A DNA stretch of 64,000 bases from an uncultured delta proteobacterium (GTDB lineage: Bacteria > Desulfobacterota > Desulfomonilia > Desulfomonilales > Desulfomonilaceae): the NCBI GenBank assembly GCA_963789265.1, contig CAWBKB010000007.1, forward strand, positions 64,001 through 128,000, read 5' to 3'. Shown here one piece after another: positions 41,831 through 47,081 of this stretch. How positions within the stretch are numbered: the stretch's first letter is position 1; the number at the start of each line of letters is the position of its first letter. The notes beneath the pieces are model-generated. The model saw nothing but the letters and a program-made list of their open reading frames with translations, was not told the DNA's origin and made no database searches. The translations under genes were made by a program, and so were the position numbers.

Positions 41831-41913
41831 ATTCATTAACTCACGTTGTACATGTTACTCGAAGTCGCGCGCTCAGAAATGAGCCAAGAGCAGATCTGAC
41901 CCCTTTTGACCCC
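41831..41913 (-). repeat. R1: divergent, inverted copy of the GGGGTC...GACCCC hairpin repeat
   Basis: Reverse complement begins GGGGTCAGATCTGCTCTTGGCTCATTTCTGAGC; duplicated end TGACCCCTTTTGACCCC. Confidence 0.7.
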
Positions 41914-41975: not shown

Positions 41976-42809
41976 TTAGGGGCAATCATGTATTGGGCTT
42001 TCCTTGGCTCCGTGTGCCCTCAAGAGTTCTACGATTTCATCACTTGCTGCCCAATCCAGAGCAGTAGTGCAATGCATGCCGCCTACGTGATTGATATCCG
42101 GCCCCTTGTCCAACAGGGCCTGCACTATCTCTACATTACCATCCGATGCAGCGAACATCAGTGCTGTCCAACCACTGTCATCTTTGGCATTGACATCGGC
42201 TCCTTTGGCCAAAAGTAACTTCACGATCTCAAGATGTCCACTTCCCGAGGCTTCCGAGAGCGCTGTCCGTTCATACTCACCCTTGGCATTTACGTCCGCA
42301 CCCTTGGCCAATAGAATCTTAATTACCTGCAGATGACCATGTCTGGAAGCCCCCGCAAGCGCTGTCCCGATATCCTGGCCATCTATGCCCTTTTCCAGGA
42401 ACTCACGAACTTTTTCTGTATCCCCGAGCATAGCTGCTACTTCCAACGTGAGTATGGCTCCTCGTTGTTTCAGCAACTCAGCCATTCTTCGGCGACCCCA
42501 ACAAGCGGTGAGCCAGATTGCCGTTTTGCCATACCACCCTGTTGCATTGATGTCGGCCCCATTGTCCAGCAACAGATTGACAGTTTCCAGGTGATCGCCA
42601 TAGACGGCTCTAAGGAAGGCTGTGTCACCACGCTTGTCTTTCGCATTGACATCGGCCCCTTTGGCCAAAAGGTCTTGCACCTGCTTCAAGTCGCCCTTCA
42701 AAGCCGCTTCCGTTAACGCATCCTGATCATTCGCAAAGCTCTCGTAACAGAAAACTGACAAAACAATGAGCAGCGCTGTTGCCACTATGCCAATTCCGAG
42801 TCTGTGCAT
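41976..42809 (-). CDS. Exported ankyrin-repeat protein
   Basis: Signal peptide; repeated G.TAL..A...GHLEIVKLLLAKGADVNAK. Confidence 0.93.
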   Translation of the reverse strand: MHRLGIGIVATALLIVLSVFCYESFANDQDALTEAALKGDLKQVQDLLAKGADVNAKDKRGDTAFLRAVYGDHLETVNLLLDNGADINATGWYGKTAIWLTACWGRRRMAELLKQRGAILTLEVAAMLGDTEKVREFLEKGIDGQDIGTALAGASRHGHLQVIKILLAKGADVNAKGEYERTALSEASGSGHLEIVKLLLAKGADVNAKDDSGWTALMFAASDGNVEIVQALLDKGPDINHVGGMHCTTALDWAASDEIVELLRAHGAKESPIHDCP

Positions 42810-42905
42810 CTATGAATCCCTCCCTCCCGCAACGTCGTCTCATGAGGGTGCAATTGTTCAGCTAAGTGGATGACCCCACTACTATTCGACGAAAGGGGTC
42901 GGAAA

Positions 42906-42986
42906 GGGGTCAGATCTATTCTTAACTCATTTCCGAGCCGCTTGACAGGAAGCCACCCGCAGAATATGAGTTAAGAGCAGACTTGA
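42906..42986 (+). repeat. R2: 85-bp hairpin repeat split by the IS (last bases CCCC at 44502-44505)
   Basis: GGGGTCAGATCTATTCTTAACTCATTTC...GAATATGAGTTAAGAGCAGACTTGA|CCCC; aligns ungapped with R3 and R4. Confidence 0.88.
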
Positions 42987-43058
42987 TAATCATAAAAAGG
43001 CACCTCTGAGTCGGGAATGTGGTATCCCCGACTTGCCATTAACCGTAGGAGGTGCCCG

Positions 43059-44078
43059 ATGGAAGTATATGCGGCGCTTGATCTTCATGCAAGCAACAGT
43101 TATCTGGCGGTGGTAGAGCGAGAAGGAAAGAGGGTGTTCAACAGGAGGCTTGTTAATGATTCGGCTGTTCTCTTGAATGCCCTTGAACCTTACAAGGAAG
43201 GTATGCAAGGCATAGCAGTGGAATCCACCTTCAACTGGTACTGGGTTGTGGATGCGATGATGGAAGCGGGATACCGAGTGCATTTGGCCAATCCTACCGC
43301 TATACAAAAATACAGTGGAATGAAACATTCCGATGACAATAGCGATGCATTTTGGTTGGCGGAAATGTTACGCTTAGGCATTCTACCTGAGGGATATATA
43401 TATCCACGGGAAGAGCGCCCGGTGAGAGACCTGCTACGCAAACGGATGCATCTGGTCAAGCTGAGAACCTCACTTATTAACAGCCTGCAAAATATCCTCG
43501 CTCGTAGTATGGGCGTGAAGATTGGGGCCGCCAAGATAAAACAACTGACTAATGATCTTGTTTCACCGCTCTTGGAGCAGGACGAGAACCTGGCTCTGAC
43601 CGGCCAGGTGAGCAAGCAGAGCATAGATTTCCTCACGCGACAAATCAAGAAGGTTGAAAAGAAGGTTCAAGGGAAAATCGAATTGAAGAAGGAATATGCT
43701 TGCCTGACGACCATCTCCGGCGTGGGGGTTATCCTGTCGCTCACCATCATGCTTGAAACAGGCCCCATAAGTCGTTTTCAGGCTGCGGGGAACTATGCGT
43801 CCTATTGCAGAAAGGTTCCGACTCGCTGGACCAGCAACGGGAAGAGCAAGGGAACAGGTAACAAGAAGAATGGCAACAAGTACTTGGCATGGGCCTTTTC
43901 CGAAGCTTCGGAACTCGCCCGGCGCTTTGATCCGGCAATCAGAGCCTGGTTCGATCGGAAGGTATCCAGGACCAACCGTATGTGCGCTCACGCCGCGCTG
44001 GGCCACAAACTGGCACGAGCGGCGTATTATATCATGAGGGACCAAGTTCCCTTTGACAACAAGAGGCTTATTGGTTAG
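43059..44078 (+). CDS. IS110-family DEDD transposase/recombinase
   Basis: ALDLH, VEST, HSDDNSDA (DEDD); TISGVG, TSNG (catalytic Ser region), GNKYLAWAFSEA; AGGAGG RBS. Confidence 0.95.
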   Translation: MEVYAALDLHASNSYLAVVEREGKRVFNRRLVNDSAVLLNALEPYKEGMQGIAVESTFNWYWVVDAMMEAGYRVHLANPTAIQKYSGMKHSDDNSDAFWLAEMLRLGILPEGYIYPREERPVRDLLRKRMHLVKLRTSLINSLQNILARSMGVKIGAAKIKQLTNDLVSPLLEQDENLALTGQVSKQSIDFLTRQIKKVEKKVQGKIELKKEYACLTTISGVGVILSLTIMLETGPISRFQAAGNYASYCRKVPTRWTSNGKSKGTGNKKNGNKYLAWAFSEASELARRFDPAIRAWFDRKVSRTNRMCAHAALGHKLARAAYYIMRDQVPFDNKRLIG

Positions 44079-44084
44079 ACGACT

Positions 44085-44345
44085 GGCGTAGGCGGCGACC
44101 CTGAGTAGGGGTTGGAAAAACCACCAGATTTGATTGGGCAGCCGCCTACCCCACAGATCCGGGGAGCCGGACTCTTTGCCGCCCATGCTGTGAGCCACTA
44201 AAGGGTTGGTTCAAAACCATGAGATTTGTCCTATTCCTCTTGGACACAGCATGGAACCGAAGATTTTCTGGTCCGCAATAAGCGGAAGGGGCAGGACCTC
44301 TAAGGTCCATGCCTTGATCCTGATGGGTGACTGGTGCGGTGAGGA
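44085..44345 (+). ncRNA. Bridge/seekRNA of the IS1111-group element (boundaries approximate)
   Basis: Stem 44088-44096/44141-44149 encloses AGGGGT and CAGATTTGA, matching the target; GATTTTC (44262) and ATGGGTGA (44323) resemble the circle junction. Confidence 0.75.
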
Positions 44346-44601
44346 TAACTACCGACACCACCTGAGAGAAGTACCGGCAAAGGCGAAGAGCAGGCGCTGA
44401 CGGACGCTGTGCGAAACACGGCCGTACTCTCAGCAAGGAAACGATTCTTTCCTTGCTACAGGAGAGTCTTTTCCCTTGACAGAGGGCCTTTTAATGGGCG
44501 ACCCCTCGTCCAGCAGCGGTGCAAAAAAAACTTCTTTTTCGTGTCCGTCAGCCGTCCCCGCCTTCCAACACATACAAATTCAGCGATTTTGCCGTTTACC
44601 G

Positions 44602-46899
44602 TTATTCTATCGACGGCTTCAGCTCCGGGACCGTTTTCCACTGATTGACATAAGTCATGATCGCGGCCATCACCAACGGAATGACGCCGAACGCGATAAA
44701 GACACTGTCACCGGGCAAGCGTATCCATTCAATTGTCCTTGCAAACCCCTGGTTAAGGTAGGTAAGCCCGCGCGCATGCCAGTACCCGTGGACCAGTACG
44801 TTGTGCAACTGCAGGATGCCGCCCGGGAAAAGAGTGCACACGATCATAAGCGCCAACCCAATGTTCAAACCCCAAAAGGATACGCGTATGTATTTTTCAA
44901 TGCGCGCCCATTGCATGTCTGTTGACGCCTGGCGAAAGGCAAGGACCATGAGGGCTACCGCCTCCATACCGAATACGCCCATTAGCGCAGCGTGACCGTG
45001 GTTTGGCGTAAGCATCGTGCCCACTTCGAAATAACTTACGATGGGCAGATTGATCAGAAACCCGAAGATGCCTGCACCGACGAAATTCCAAAAGCCTACG
45101 GCCATCAGGAAATAGAACGTCCATTTATGCGGGATGGCGATCGGTTTTCCACAGACGTCGCACGTGCCCCTGGTCAACTTGATGAAGTCCCAGGCATCCA
45201 GCGTCAAAAGGGTTAGCGGGACAACTTCCATGGCCGAAAATAAGGAGGAAAGGGCGAGGTTTACATTGGTCTGGCCCGTCCAATACCAGTGATGGCCTGT
45301 GCCGATGATTCCGCTTCCCAGAAACAGGATGGCATCCAGGTAGATAACCCTGACCGCTGTATTGCGCGCGACCATGCCCAGCCTGTAAAAGGTGACGGCT
45401 ACCATCGTCGTTACAAAAAGTTCGAAGAAGCCCTCGACCCACAGGTGGATGATCCAGAAACGCCAGTTGTCAACAATGGAATACTCCGTGGTACTTTTGA
45501 AGAAGAAGGCCGGCAGGTAGAAGACGGGGATCGTCAAGGCCGATATCATGAAAAGCCACGATATTTCCTTGCGCTCAGGATCTTGGAGGGCGGGCGTAAT
45601 CGCCCGGTACACCAGGATGGCCCAAAGCACCAGTCCCAGGGCGAGAAGGATTTGCCAACCCCGGCCGAGGTCCAGATACTCCCAACCCTGGTGCCCAAAC
45701 CAGAACCAGAATTTGCCGAGGAGTTGATCGATGCCCAGCAGTTCTCCCAGAAGACTTCCGCCAACAACTATCACCAGCGCCCAGAAAAGCAGGTTTATTC
45801 CCTTCACCTGCCCCTTGGGTTCGTATTCTCCCAAAGCGCTGCCAAGCAGCAGGCCGCCCCCCACAAAGGCTGTAGCAATCCAGAAAATGGCCAACTGAAG
45901 GTGCCAGGTTCGCAGGATAATGCTCGGAAACACATCGTATAAAGGAATCCCGTAGAAGCTTCCCGGCTCTGCCCTGAAGTGCGCGGTAGCCCCGCCTACA
46001 AGCACTTGCGCCAGGAAAAGGAGGGAGACCACAAGGAAAAACTTGATGGTCGCTCTCTGGGTCTCACCAGCCCTGCCGGGCAACATTTGCGGATGGATGT
46101 GCGGCCTTGCTCCCCTCCAGCCAAGGTAATCGAATCTGCCGAAGGCAAACAACACCACAGCCGTGCCGACAAGAAGAGCAATAAGGCTTATGGCGCTCCA
46201 GAGCACGGCGTTACCTGGCGGAACATTGCCCACCAGCGGGTCGTAGGGAAAATTGTTGGTGTAAGTTACCGAGCCGCCCGGGCGGTTTACCACCGAAGCC
46301 CAGGCTGCCCAAGCAAAAAATGCCGTAAGTTCCTTCAGTTCTTTGGGATTGCTGATATAGTCGGGCCTAAGTCCGCCGTTCAGGTCTGGCGAGGAGAAAT
46401 AATGTGTCCACAGGCCCACCTGCTCCTTGTAAGAATTCGCCTCCGGGTCGGTGAAAACCAGTGTTCGGGTCCTCGGGTCGTAGCGGTTTTGTTTCAGAAG
46501 GAGTCTGACTTTGTCTTCAACGGTCGCCCGCTCTCCTCGTGACGGTTGGTTCACGTCGTGGCCGAAGAGCTTTTGAGCCATGGTATTTGCAGCTTCGACG
46601 CCAAGGGTGTGAAGGTAAGCTGCCGAAAAATCCGGTCCGAGGTAGGCCCCATGCCCCCAGAGAGTACCATTTTCCATGAGCCCGTACTTCTCAAACACCT
46701 TCTGGCCTGCCAGGATTTCTTGCCCGGTCAAAAGTGTCTTCCCCGAGGTGGTCACTATTTTCTCTGGAATCGGCGGAGCGTCGCGGTAGGCAAGGACTGC
46801 AACCAGAATCAGGACTGAAAACCCCGCCAGCACTACGAGAATTACCGCACGCACCCACCAGGGTGATAGTCCTTCATCCATTTTTTCAGCAGGTGTCAT
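44602..46899 (-). CDS. norB: Quinol-dependent nitric oxide reductase (qNor)
   Basis: WGHGAYLGPDFSA, YTNNFPYDPLVGN, RTWHLQ, HLWVEGFFE, GTGHHWY, NHGHAA; RBS before ATG 46899. Confidence 0.95.
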   Translation of the reverse strand: MTPAEKMDEGLSPWWVRAVILVVLAGFSVLILVAVLAYRDAPPIPEKIVTTSGKTLLTGQEILAGQKVFEKYGLMENGTLWGHGAYLGPDFSAAYLHTLGVEAANTMAQKLFGHDVNQPSRGERATVEDKVRLLLKQNRYDPRTRTLVFTDPEANSYKEQVGLWTHYFSSPDLNGGLRPDYISNPKELKELTAFFAWAAWASVVNRPGGSVTYTNNFPYDPLVGNVPPGNAVLWSAISLIALLVGTAVVLFAFGRFDYLGWRGARPHIHPQMLPGRAGETQRATIKFFLVVSLLFLAQVLVGGATAHFRAEPGSFYGIPLYDVFPSIILRTWHLQLAIFWIATAFVGGGLLLGSALGEYEPKGQVKGINLLFWALVIVVGGSLLGELLGIDQLLGKFWFWFGHQGWEYLDLGRGWQILLALGLVLWAILVYRAITPALQDPERKEISWLFMISALTIPVFYLPAFFFKSTTEYSIVDNWRFWIIHLWVEGFFELFVTTMVAVTFYRLGMVARNTAVRVIYLDAILFLGSGIIGTGHHWYWTGQTNVNLALSSLFSAMEVVPLTLLTLDAWDFIKLTRGTCDVCGKPIAIPHKWTFYFLMAVGFWNFVGAGIFGFLINLPIVSYFEVGTMLTPNHGHAALMGVFGMEAVALMVLAFRQASTDMQWARIEKYIRVSFWGLNIGLALMIVCTLFPGGILQLHNVLVHGYWHARGLTYLNQGFARTIEWIRLPGDSVFIAFGVIPLVMAAIMTYVNQWKTVPELKPSIE

Positions 46900-46996
46900 C
46901 TTTTCTCCCTCCTTGATTACACTTCCGGTTCCTTTCTCAATCAGAAAGCGTTCTGCACCAACCCTCTGTGACCTCAACGTATTGCAAGATGAAAAC

Positions 46997-47081
46997 GGGG
47001 TCAAATCTATTCTTAACTCATTTCCGAGCCACTTGATAGGAAGCCACCCGCGGAATATAAGTCAAGAGCAGACTCGCCCCC
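46997..47081 (+). repeat. R3: 85-bp hairpin repeat
   Basis: GGGGTCAAATCTATTCTTAACTCATTTCCGAGCC...GTCAAGAGCAGACTCGCCCCC. Confidence 0.88.

Follow-up and report, generated by a model that had tools for sequence, protein, structure and literature searches.

The window, a 64,000-nt stretch of bacterial DNA, carries at 42987-44501 an intact insertion sequence (IS) of 1515 bp that belongs to the IS1111 group of the IS110 family, with all of its features on the forward strand. Its only gene, encoding a 339-aa recombinase (43059..44078), is preceded by a 72-nt left end (42987..43058) with a ribosome-binding site, AGGAGG, at 43047-43052, and is followed by a 3′ non-coding region of 423 nt (44079-44501) that closes with the right end (44476..44501; terminus GGGCGA). 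The longer non-coding region is thus downstream of the gene (423 nt vs 72 nt upstream), as in the IS1111 group. Subterminal inverted repeats occupy 42991-43008 (CATAAAAAGGCACCTCTG) and 44480-44496 (CAGAGGGCCTTTTAATG); within them CATAAAAAGGC (42991) pairs with GCCTTTTAATG (44486) over 11 bp with 1 mismatch, extended by CCTCTG/CAGAGG past a 1-nt indel. Relatives likewise have such repeats, which agree with the IS1111 pattern of about 7-17 bp with short terminal extensions. A -35-like TTGACA (44476-44481) lies in the right end and a -10-like GATAAT spans the left boundary, the latter made up of TAAT (42987-42990) and the preceding GA; joining the ends computationally into a circle places TTGACA 18 nt from GATAAT, a predicted junction promoter. 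The right end is preceded by a conserved hairpin, GCAAGGAAA / TTTCCTTGC (44433..44456). The element is situated between a gene for an ankyrin-repeat protein with an N-terminal hydrophobic stretch (41976-42809, reverse strand) and a gene for an 800-aa membrane protein (44602-47004, reverse strand), neither of which is interrupted.

The recombinase scored 60.1 bits against the DEDD (RuvC-like) domain PF01548 (cut-off 29), 46.6 bits against Transposase_20, PF02371 (cut-off 21.3), and 184.9 bits against the NCBIfam model NF033542, "IS110 family RNA-guided transposase" (cut-off 140), and it matched the IS621 and ISCro4 chains at an E of about 1e-11. On alignment with ISCro4, the E of AVEST, the DxxD of DDNSDA and the Ser of WTSNG fall on conserved residues, with the first Asp beyond the aligned stretch; this Ser aligns with that of the ESG motif in IS621/ISCro4, and the residue after it is N, not G. 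We assign the element to the IS1111 group because its domains, downstream non-coding region, subterminal repeats and computed junction promoter match the marks (anatomy, ends and junction promoter) given in PMC11187229 and PMC11208160. An Rfam search over 42800-44700 returned two chance-level matches only, far under the gathering scores, and no family was assigned. Among the public sequencing runs listed for the stretch, none was an RNA run. Neither a circle junction nor an empty site of the window locus (a joint across the element) was seen over 42600-44900 in the contigs of four DNA runs, which were short pieces only. One contig of run X4 (record 25, 38 differences) was set aside as not being evidence; it diverges from the left flank upstream of 42979 and has only AGACTTGA in common with it.

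The junctions, marked here by a caret, read CAGACTTGA^TAATC on the left (42978-42986^42987) and ATGGGCGA^CCCCT on the right (44494-44501^44502), and these, like all motif coordinates in the first-pass annotation, proved correct when checked in the sequence. The target is one arm of a REP-like palindromic repeat, ATGAGTCAAGAGNAGAYYTGA^CCCCTTT, whose left arm lies at 42906..42930 (GGGGTCAGATCTATTCTTAACTCAT), whose right arm extends to the insertion point at 42966..42986 (ATGAGTTAAGAGCAGACTTGA), and whose continuation past the element is the right target half, CCCCT (44502..44506). The last 8 nt of the right arm, AGACTTGA, comprise the left target half and the predicted crossover bases, and the reverse complement of the left arm forms a second target-like site, which is unoccupied. 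Further repeat arms are found in the window at 41892, 42917, 47008, 47910 and 48025. Across the genome (9 contigs, 6.06 Mb), AGAYYTGACCCC occurs 31 times vs 3.1 expected from base composition, 27 out of 28 repeat arms fit AGAYYTGA and are compatible with the guide described below, and uninterrupted AGACTTGACCCC sites are present.

Searching the same genome, we found 3 full copies of the element with 99-100% identity, all with open 339-aa frames. Every copy has the same 12 nt, GAGCAGACTTGA, as its left flank, so that copies at unrelated sites, which the first-pass annotation had named as counting against its reading, were not seen. On the right, the window copy is followed by CCCCT, the C4 copy runs off its contig, and the C1 copy has an atypical flank, CTCATC rather than CCCC. 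Apart from that atypical flank, insertion was into one specific sequence, in one orientation and without target duplication, as described for the IS1111 group. To the right of the C1 copy (L003, C1:1413343-1414975) the sequence repeats 59 bp of the copy's own left flank (CTCATCAG...) before the expected ...GACTTGACCCC appears. Part of the palindrome (CTCATCAG...CAGACTTGA) flanks the copy as a direct repeat of 59 bp; the right junction reads GGGTGA^CTCAT, and CCCC, expected there, follows only after 59 bp. This arrangement fits either unequal exchange between copies at two palindrome sites or recombination at the pseudo-site TTGA^CTCAT. The three copies were too similar to one another to be used for testing covariation. 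A second, unrelated IS110-group element of 1265 bp is present in two 99.4% identical copies (L011 and L012; C6:453-455 kb and C1:2326-2329 kb); its 323-aa open frame is preceded by a non-coding stretch of about 300 nt, and the distance from one copy to a right-end remnant of the IS1111-type element is about 60 bp.

The genome also contains five solo right-end remnants of 25-110 nt, 81-95% identical and lacking a left end or gene (C1:349356-349461, C8:84384-84465, C7:313396-313436, C7:315032-315073 and C1:2327303-2327327), all of which end in ...AATGGG(TGA) followed by C-rich sequence, directly CCCC in two. Such remnants, together with the window copy's terminus GGGCGA, which differs from the guide, would suit an element that was recently active and is now silent, so that its matches record past activity and its RNA is no longer made or used. 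Against this stand the near identity and open frames of all three copies, the intact structure and guides, the first 250 nt of the non-coding region, which are the same in all three (differences occur only after position 250), and the 6 perfect targets, CAGACTTGACCCC, that remain unoccupied in the genome. We consider a silent relic quite improbable, and take the element to be active-looking.

Just past the stop codon, the non-coding region contains a stem-loop (44084..44153), here called module 1, whose stem joins GTAGGCGGC (44088-44096) with GCCGCCTAC (44141-44149). Its loop carries a top-strand guide, AGGGGT (44107-44112), and a bottom-strand guide, AGATTTGA (44126-44133, with TG at 44131-44132), the latter within the left-flank match CAGATTTGA (44125-44133) that the first-pass annotation had picked out; the two guides are framed by the outer stem, a 2-bp helix and an inner hairpin that lies between them. 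This order, in which the top-strand match comes first (5′) and the bottom-strand match second, is that of a seekRNA, of which module 1 would be the core. The region as a whole (44076-44501, 426 nt) has a predicted folding energy of -177.4 kcal/mol vs -143.2 +/- 6.8 in shuffles (z = -5.0, 0/100 shuffles). Of 20000 mononucleotide shuffles of the single sequence, run as the chance test, only 8 had AGGGGT lying 5-45 nt upstream of a same-sense match of 8/9 to the left flank. The two candidate donor motifs further downstream were by comparison within chance: an internal match to the right end as good as that observed (8/10) was reached by 532/3000 shuffles, and a match to the reverse complement of the left end (6/8) by 1996/3000. 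Since only the target loop was above chance on the single sequence, judging the donor motifs required a comparison across the family.

We therefore collected related elements in two scans. The first scan, limited to one genome per species, yielded 194 relatives, mostly from MAGs of Desulfobacterota and Nitrospirota, and 79 loci with 49-92% identity were kept; L091 was the query of the second scan, the Paraburkholderia copy being unsuitable on account of an in-frame stop. A Sinorhizobium plasmid element (32% identity) was dropped for its different architecture. Also left out were L086, whose ribosome-binding site had been mistaken for the left end, loci in which no end motif could be recognised or the flank was shorter than 8 bases, and, from the first-scan left-flank count, L092-L094, which have two target loops; identical guide/flank pairs were counted once. 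The Paraburkholderia sp. PGU19 plasmid element (L099/L102) is 49.7% identical and sits at the target CGAA-TG-TCCCTT; its in-frame stop leaves a longest open frame of 301 aa, and a second copy is 99% identical. At L159 (about 2340-2400) the right terminus is tandem-duplicated (GCCTTTTAATGGGTG twice) before the flank ACCCCAAT.

The ends of the relatives are near-constant (TAATCAT... and ...TTTAATGGGTGA) and their flanks differ, and the segment that stands where the window copy has AGATTTGA varies in step with the left flank, as in GAGACCCGA (L023), ATTATTGA (L024), AGGGCTGA (L089), ATGCCTGA (L078), CATGACTTGA (L077) and AAGGGCTGA (L082). In the first scan, 32 unique pairs of bottom-strand guide and left flank matched at 168/192 positions, compared with 107.9 +/- 5.6 after shuffling (0/20000); 18 were perfect over 8 nt, 23 were perfect with G.U allowed, and 9 had one or more true mismatches, among them L046/L049, which fit poorly (2 true mismatches and 2 G.U in 8), L057 (2) and L022 (3). 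With both scans combined, 78 unique pairs comprising 36 guide alleles matched at 431/546 positions vs 268.9 +/- 9.4 (0/20000 shuffles), although these shuffles ignore relatedness and the counts accordingly overstate independence. The top-strand guide covaried with the right flank as well, at 209/308 positions in 44 unique elements vs 177.5 +/- 5.3 (0/20000 shuffles), and matched 8/8 at the non-consensus sites of L023 (ACGCTACA), L120 (ACCCACCT), L134 (GCACCTAC) and L165 (GCACCTAT). This is the comparison of homologues' loops with their flanks that the first-pass annotation had put forward as the check on its reading, and together with the left flank common to the three own copies it bears out the claim of an intact IS1111-type element whose first 3′ stem-loop is programmed against its repeat. 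The accompanying idea, that U in the guide accepts both C and T repeat variants by wobble pairing, is compatible with the data in that 29 of the 60 guide/flank mismatches (both scans) are G.U-compatible.

The stem of module 1 is conserved as structure. In 65 distinct sequences, 96.5% of cells were paired vs 32-54% in controls with slid partners, and 13 out of 17 pairs were changed on both sides in a compensatory manner, with 0/500 shuffles as good. A covariance model of module 1 (R1) found it downstream of the gene in every relative with a match, about 140 loci carry the target-loop model, and in the own genome R1 detected only the three known copies and no orphan guide modules. An IS621-type guide RNA in the left end was not found: the 72-nt left end has no such structure, and R1 matches only downstream. 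In eight loci an unrelated but conserved insert of about 290-450 nt, beginning ...GGATCGGAC.GGTGGCG..., separates the stop codon from module 1, the insert loci named being L030, L036, L044, L045 (also L047, L048, L051, L055), L071 and L082. A strong hairpin that starts 6 nt past a stop codon might simply be a terminator or an mRNA-stability element of the recombinase gene, with matches between loop and flanks that are fortuitous, yet the rarity of the joint match in shuffles, loop strands that vary with the flanks over the many guide alleles, and a stem kept by compensatory changes leave this explanation with almost no credence. Module 1 is thus best read as a target-binding stem-loop.

The family also bears on where strands would be exchanged. 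GA are the only bases common to target and donor junction in the window copy, which is the source of the "GA core" proposed in the first-pass annotation. Among the relatives, the right-junction base after TG is C or G in 9 first-scan elements, and it is also not A in L161, L165 and L146 (second scan) and in the Paraburkholderia plasmid relative; in all but L090 the non-A base follows the target guide and/or the extension of the donor loop. In these same elements, A, with which the left end also begins, is retained at the left junction and in the bottom-strand guide. Because the base after TG belongs, by its behaviour, to the flank at the right junction and to the element at the left one, the exchange is placed in TG, and the GA core is probably wrong. 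We infer a crossover in TG, or CG in some members, with its exact position deduced from these junctions. CG is found in the guide, left junction and right end of L023, and in the guide and left junction of L071; the window copy combines CG at its right junction with TG at its left, and the C1 copy has TG at both. L130, L141 and L170 all have a bottom-strand guide of CACC-TA and a left junction of CACC-TG, with a right end of GGG-TA in L130 and L170 and a donor guide of GGG-TG in L141 and L170, a pattern which suggests that the second base of the crossover is tied to the right-hand partner.

Downstream of module 1, a large domain (44162..44408) is closed by a long-range helix between 44162-44180 and 44382-44408, for which an alifold consensus of 26 relatives gave 16 pairs, 12 with compensatory changes. 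It encloses a second stem-loop that resembles the target loop (module 2, 44183..44254) and a predicted donor-binding multiloop (module 3, 44257..44377) with hairpins at 44272-44286, 44289-44314 and 44332-44354. Module 3 contains the two motifs that the first-pass annotation had likened to the halves of the circle junction: GATTTTC (44262-44268) and ATGGGTGA (44323-44330), the latter lying within ATGGG-TG-AC (44323-44331), which reads as a candidate left-donor guide, the crossover bases and then 2 nt that track the right flank.

The two motifs fared differently in the family comparison. TGATGGGTG is invariant in 26 aligned non-coding regions and is the same as the family right end, and where the right end has changed, to ATGTGTG in L134 and to ATGAGTG in L143, the internal motif mirrors the change. 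ATGGGTGA is supported as a donor guide because these two end changes recur internally; it differs from the window copy's own end, ATGGGCGA, so that a G.U pair would be needed there. The 2-nt extension after TG agrees with the first two bases of the right flank at 80/86 positions vs 62.3 +/- 2.5 (0/20000 shuffles), the extension being AC in most elements, CC in L022, CA in L046/L049/L062, GC in L060, L161 and L165, GC also in L077 (flank GT), and TC in L146 and the Paraburkholderia plasmid element. GATTTTC is weakly supported as a right-donor guide: it was not above chance, its register fits G-ATAATC with one fixed U.T mismatch, and its second base varies (A, G, T, C) against an invariant left end. 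Among five elements with ATGATCAT ends, a compensating C is seen in 1, U is kept (G.U) in 3, and G is present in 1. By the measure of an IS621-type donor loop, then, the left-donor guide is supported, and the right-donor guide is within chance with one fixed mismatch.

Module 1 might nevertheless be the only part that guides DNA, the multiloop with ATGGGTGA and GATTTTC serving as a structural or protein-binding scaffold and the ends being read through the subterminal inverted repeats. An 82-nt RNA of ISEc11, short and without the donor loop, is reported in PMC11187229 to have been sufficient for transposition, so the donor loop may be dispensable; furthermore, both donor motifs were within chance on the single sequence, the near-invariant donor ends of the family leave little for covariation to work on, and the Paraburkholderia relative sets ACGGGTG opposite ATGGGTG. 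Set against these points are the two independent right-end changes mirrored in the internal motif, the bases after TG that track the right flank in 4 first-scan lineages, the Paraburkholderia element, L161, L165 and L146, and the account in PMC11208160, which predicts a right-end bridge RNA for 93% of IS1111 elements and describes a multiloop with donor-binding nucleotides for many of them. On balance we regard the pure scaffold as unlikely, and favor a donor-reading role for at least ATGGGTGA.

Module 2, which the first-pass annotation had not noted, is conserved across the clade. Its outer stem joins CATGCTGTG (44184) with CACAGCATG (44245), its loop strands are CTAAAGGGT (5′, 44198-44206) and GAGATTTG (3′, 44221-44228), and in the consensus fold of 26 non-coding regions its architecture is like that of module 1, with 8 of 10 stem pairs compensatory. 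The covariance model of module 2 (R2) gave 91 matches over 100 sources, and the fact that about ten of these also hit module 1 suggests a shared ancestor of the two modules. At positions where module 1 is derived, module 2 had the derived base in common at 142/273 on the 3′ strand (78 expected) and at 30/180 on the 5′ strand (18.7 expected), suggesting that module 2 partly follows module 1 upon a change of target. The Paraburkholderia element illustrates this tracking, with CGAATG/AAGGGA in module 1 and GGAATG/AAAGGA in module 2, and L077, L127, L168, L134 and L146 are other clear cases, whereas among many retargeted elements, such as L023, L078, L089 and L159, module 2 stays near the family consensus.

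Some relatives have two or three full target loops in tandem. Two copies of full module 1 are found in eight loci (L092, L093 (= L158), L094, L131, L141, L152, L166 and L167), and in these more distant relatives the tandem loops are about 100-175 nt apart with slightly different guides, for example AAGACGTG and AAGACTTG in L093. Module 2 was also considered by eye in the 26-sequence alignment as a donor loop or as a partner of the subterminal repeats, and no consistent match was seen. Possible roles for module 2 are those of an additional, more generic guide to the target, of the target loop within a bridge RNA that has two loops, or of a structural paralogue. We tentatively raise the possibility, to which we give rather less than even odds, that the clade's 3′ region encodes two separable guide units, one being the stand-alone module 1 and the other the helix-closed module 2 (GAGAUUUG / AAAGGGU) with module 3. 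The helix-closed unit would then amount to a bridge RNA complete with both loops, to which module 1 adds a further target guide, and the two units could let the element reach more variants of the repeat or serve a two-RNA pathway like that reported for an IS110 element.

Overall, the explanation that accounts best for these observations, to which we give a probability of roughly 0.85, is an active-looking IS1111 element with a 3′ guide RNA programmed to its repeat. Under this model, the 3′ non-coding region would be co-transcribed with the recombinase gene or transcribed after it, the strongest source being the promoter at the circle junction, where ...AATGGGYG is predicted to be joined to ATAATCAT, and the transcript of this region would fold into the guide RNA and be bound by the recombinase. 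The 5′ strand of module 1, AGGGGU, would pair with the top strand of the right target half (ACCCCT) and the 3′ strand, AGAUUUGA, with the bottom strand of the left half (AGAYYTGA), two U's in the guide presumably accepting C and T repeat variants through G.U pairing. AUGGGUG of the multiloop would pair with the element's right end, and the next two bases, which follow the right flank, may act in a manner like the IS621 handshake. The recombinase would then exchange strands within TG, leaving the element at ...AGAYYTG^A... of the REP-like palindrome.

This kind of system is already known, having been described in 2024, and the element is one further natural example. As described in PMC11187229, ISEc11, ISPa11, ISKpn4 and ISPst6 are alike in having a DEDD recombinase of about 340 aa (that of ISEc11 is also 339 aa; PMC13604230), a long downstream non-coding region, subterminal inverted repeats, a stem-loop just past the stop codon with matches that meet at the insertion point, the same guide order, and -35 and -10 elements that are united once the ends join in a circle; the REP-type target is likewise as in ISPa11. 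The element differs from these in sequence, in host (with Desulfobacterota-type MAG relatives), in its target AGAYYTG^ACCCC and in that its RNA is predicted. The second target-like module and the donor multiloop are not part of the PMC11187229 description, supplementary figures aside. By comparison with the bridge RNA of IS621, as given in PMC11208160, PMC11208158 and PMC13626964, there are likewise loop strands that would pair with opposite DNA strands around a short crossover, a separate loop for the element's own ends, and two-base handshake positions (PMC11208158), here the two bases after TG that track the right flank. Unlike in IS621, the RNA is encoded in the right end instead of the left, top- and bottom-strand guides come in the opposite order, the donor loop takes the form of a multiloop, TG and not CT is the candidate crossover, the subterminal repeats are long, and there are three modules rather than two loops. 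In CazIS110-1, a truncated target-loop RNA works with the full bridge RNA, according to Sun et al. (2025, bioRxiv 10.1101/2025.10.25.684509), and two RNAs or modules with target-binding capacity would be common to both systems; CazIS110-1 is of the IS110 group and its second species truncates the same loop, in contrast to the paralogous module here, and a link between the two systems is tentative.

For its host genome, the element is an ordinary mobile element in a repeat. Only the conserved extra module and the handshake-like covariation go beyond what we found in print; a second target loop in IS1111 elements was not mentioned in the titles and abstracts among the literature matches listed, supplementary figures of PMC11187229 aside. 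SeekRNAs are described in PMC11187229 as having short (70-100 nt) and long (145-170 nt) forms downstream of the gene, the role of the long form being unknown, and the conserved extra module could bear on this unexplained "long seekRNA". RNA-guided recombinases of the IS110 and IS1111 groups are under development as genome-insertion tools, the IS1111 branch being the less understood. The present clade is large and easily aligned, its guide alleles form a natural reprogramming series for the target loop, and its covariation is evidence, for the IS1111 group, that the donor end is read by RNA and that handshake-like positions exist.
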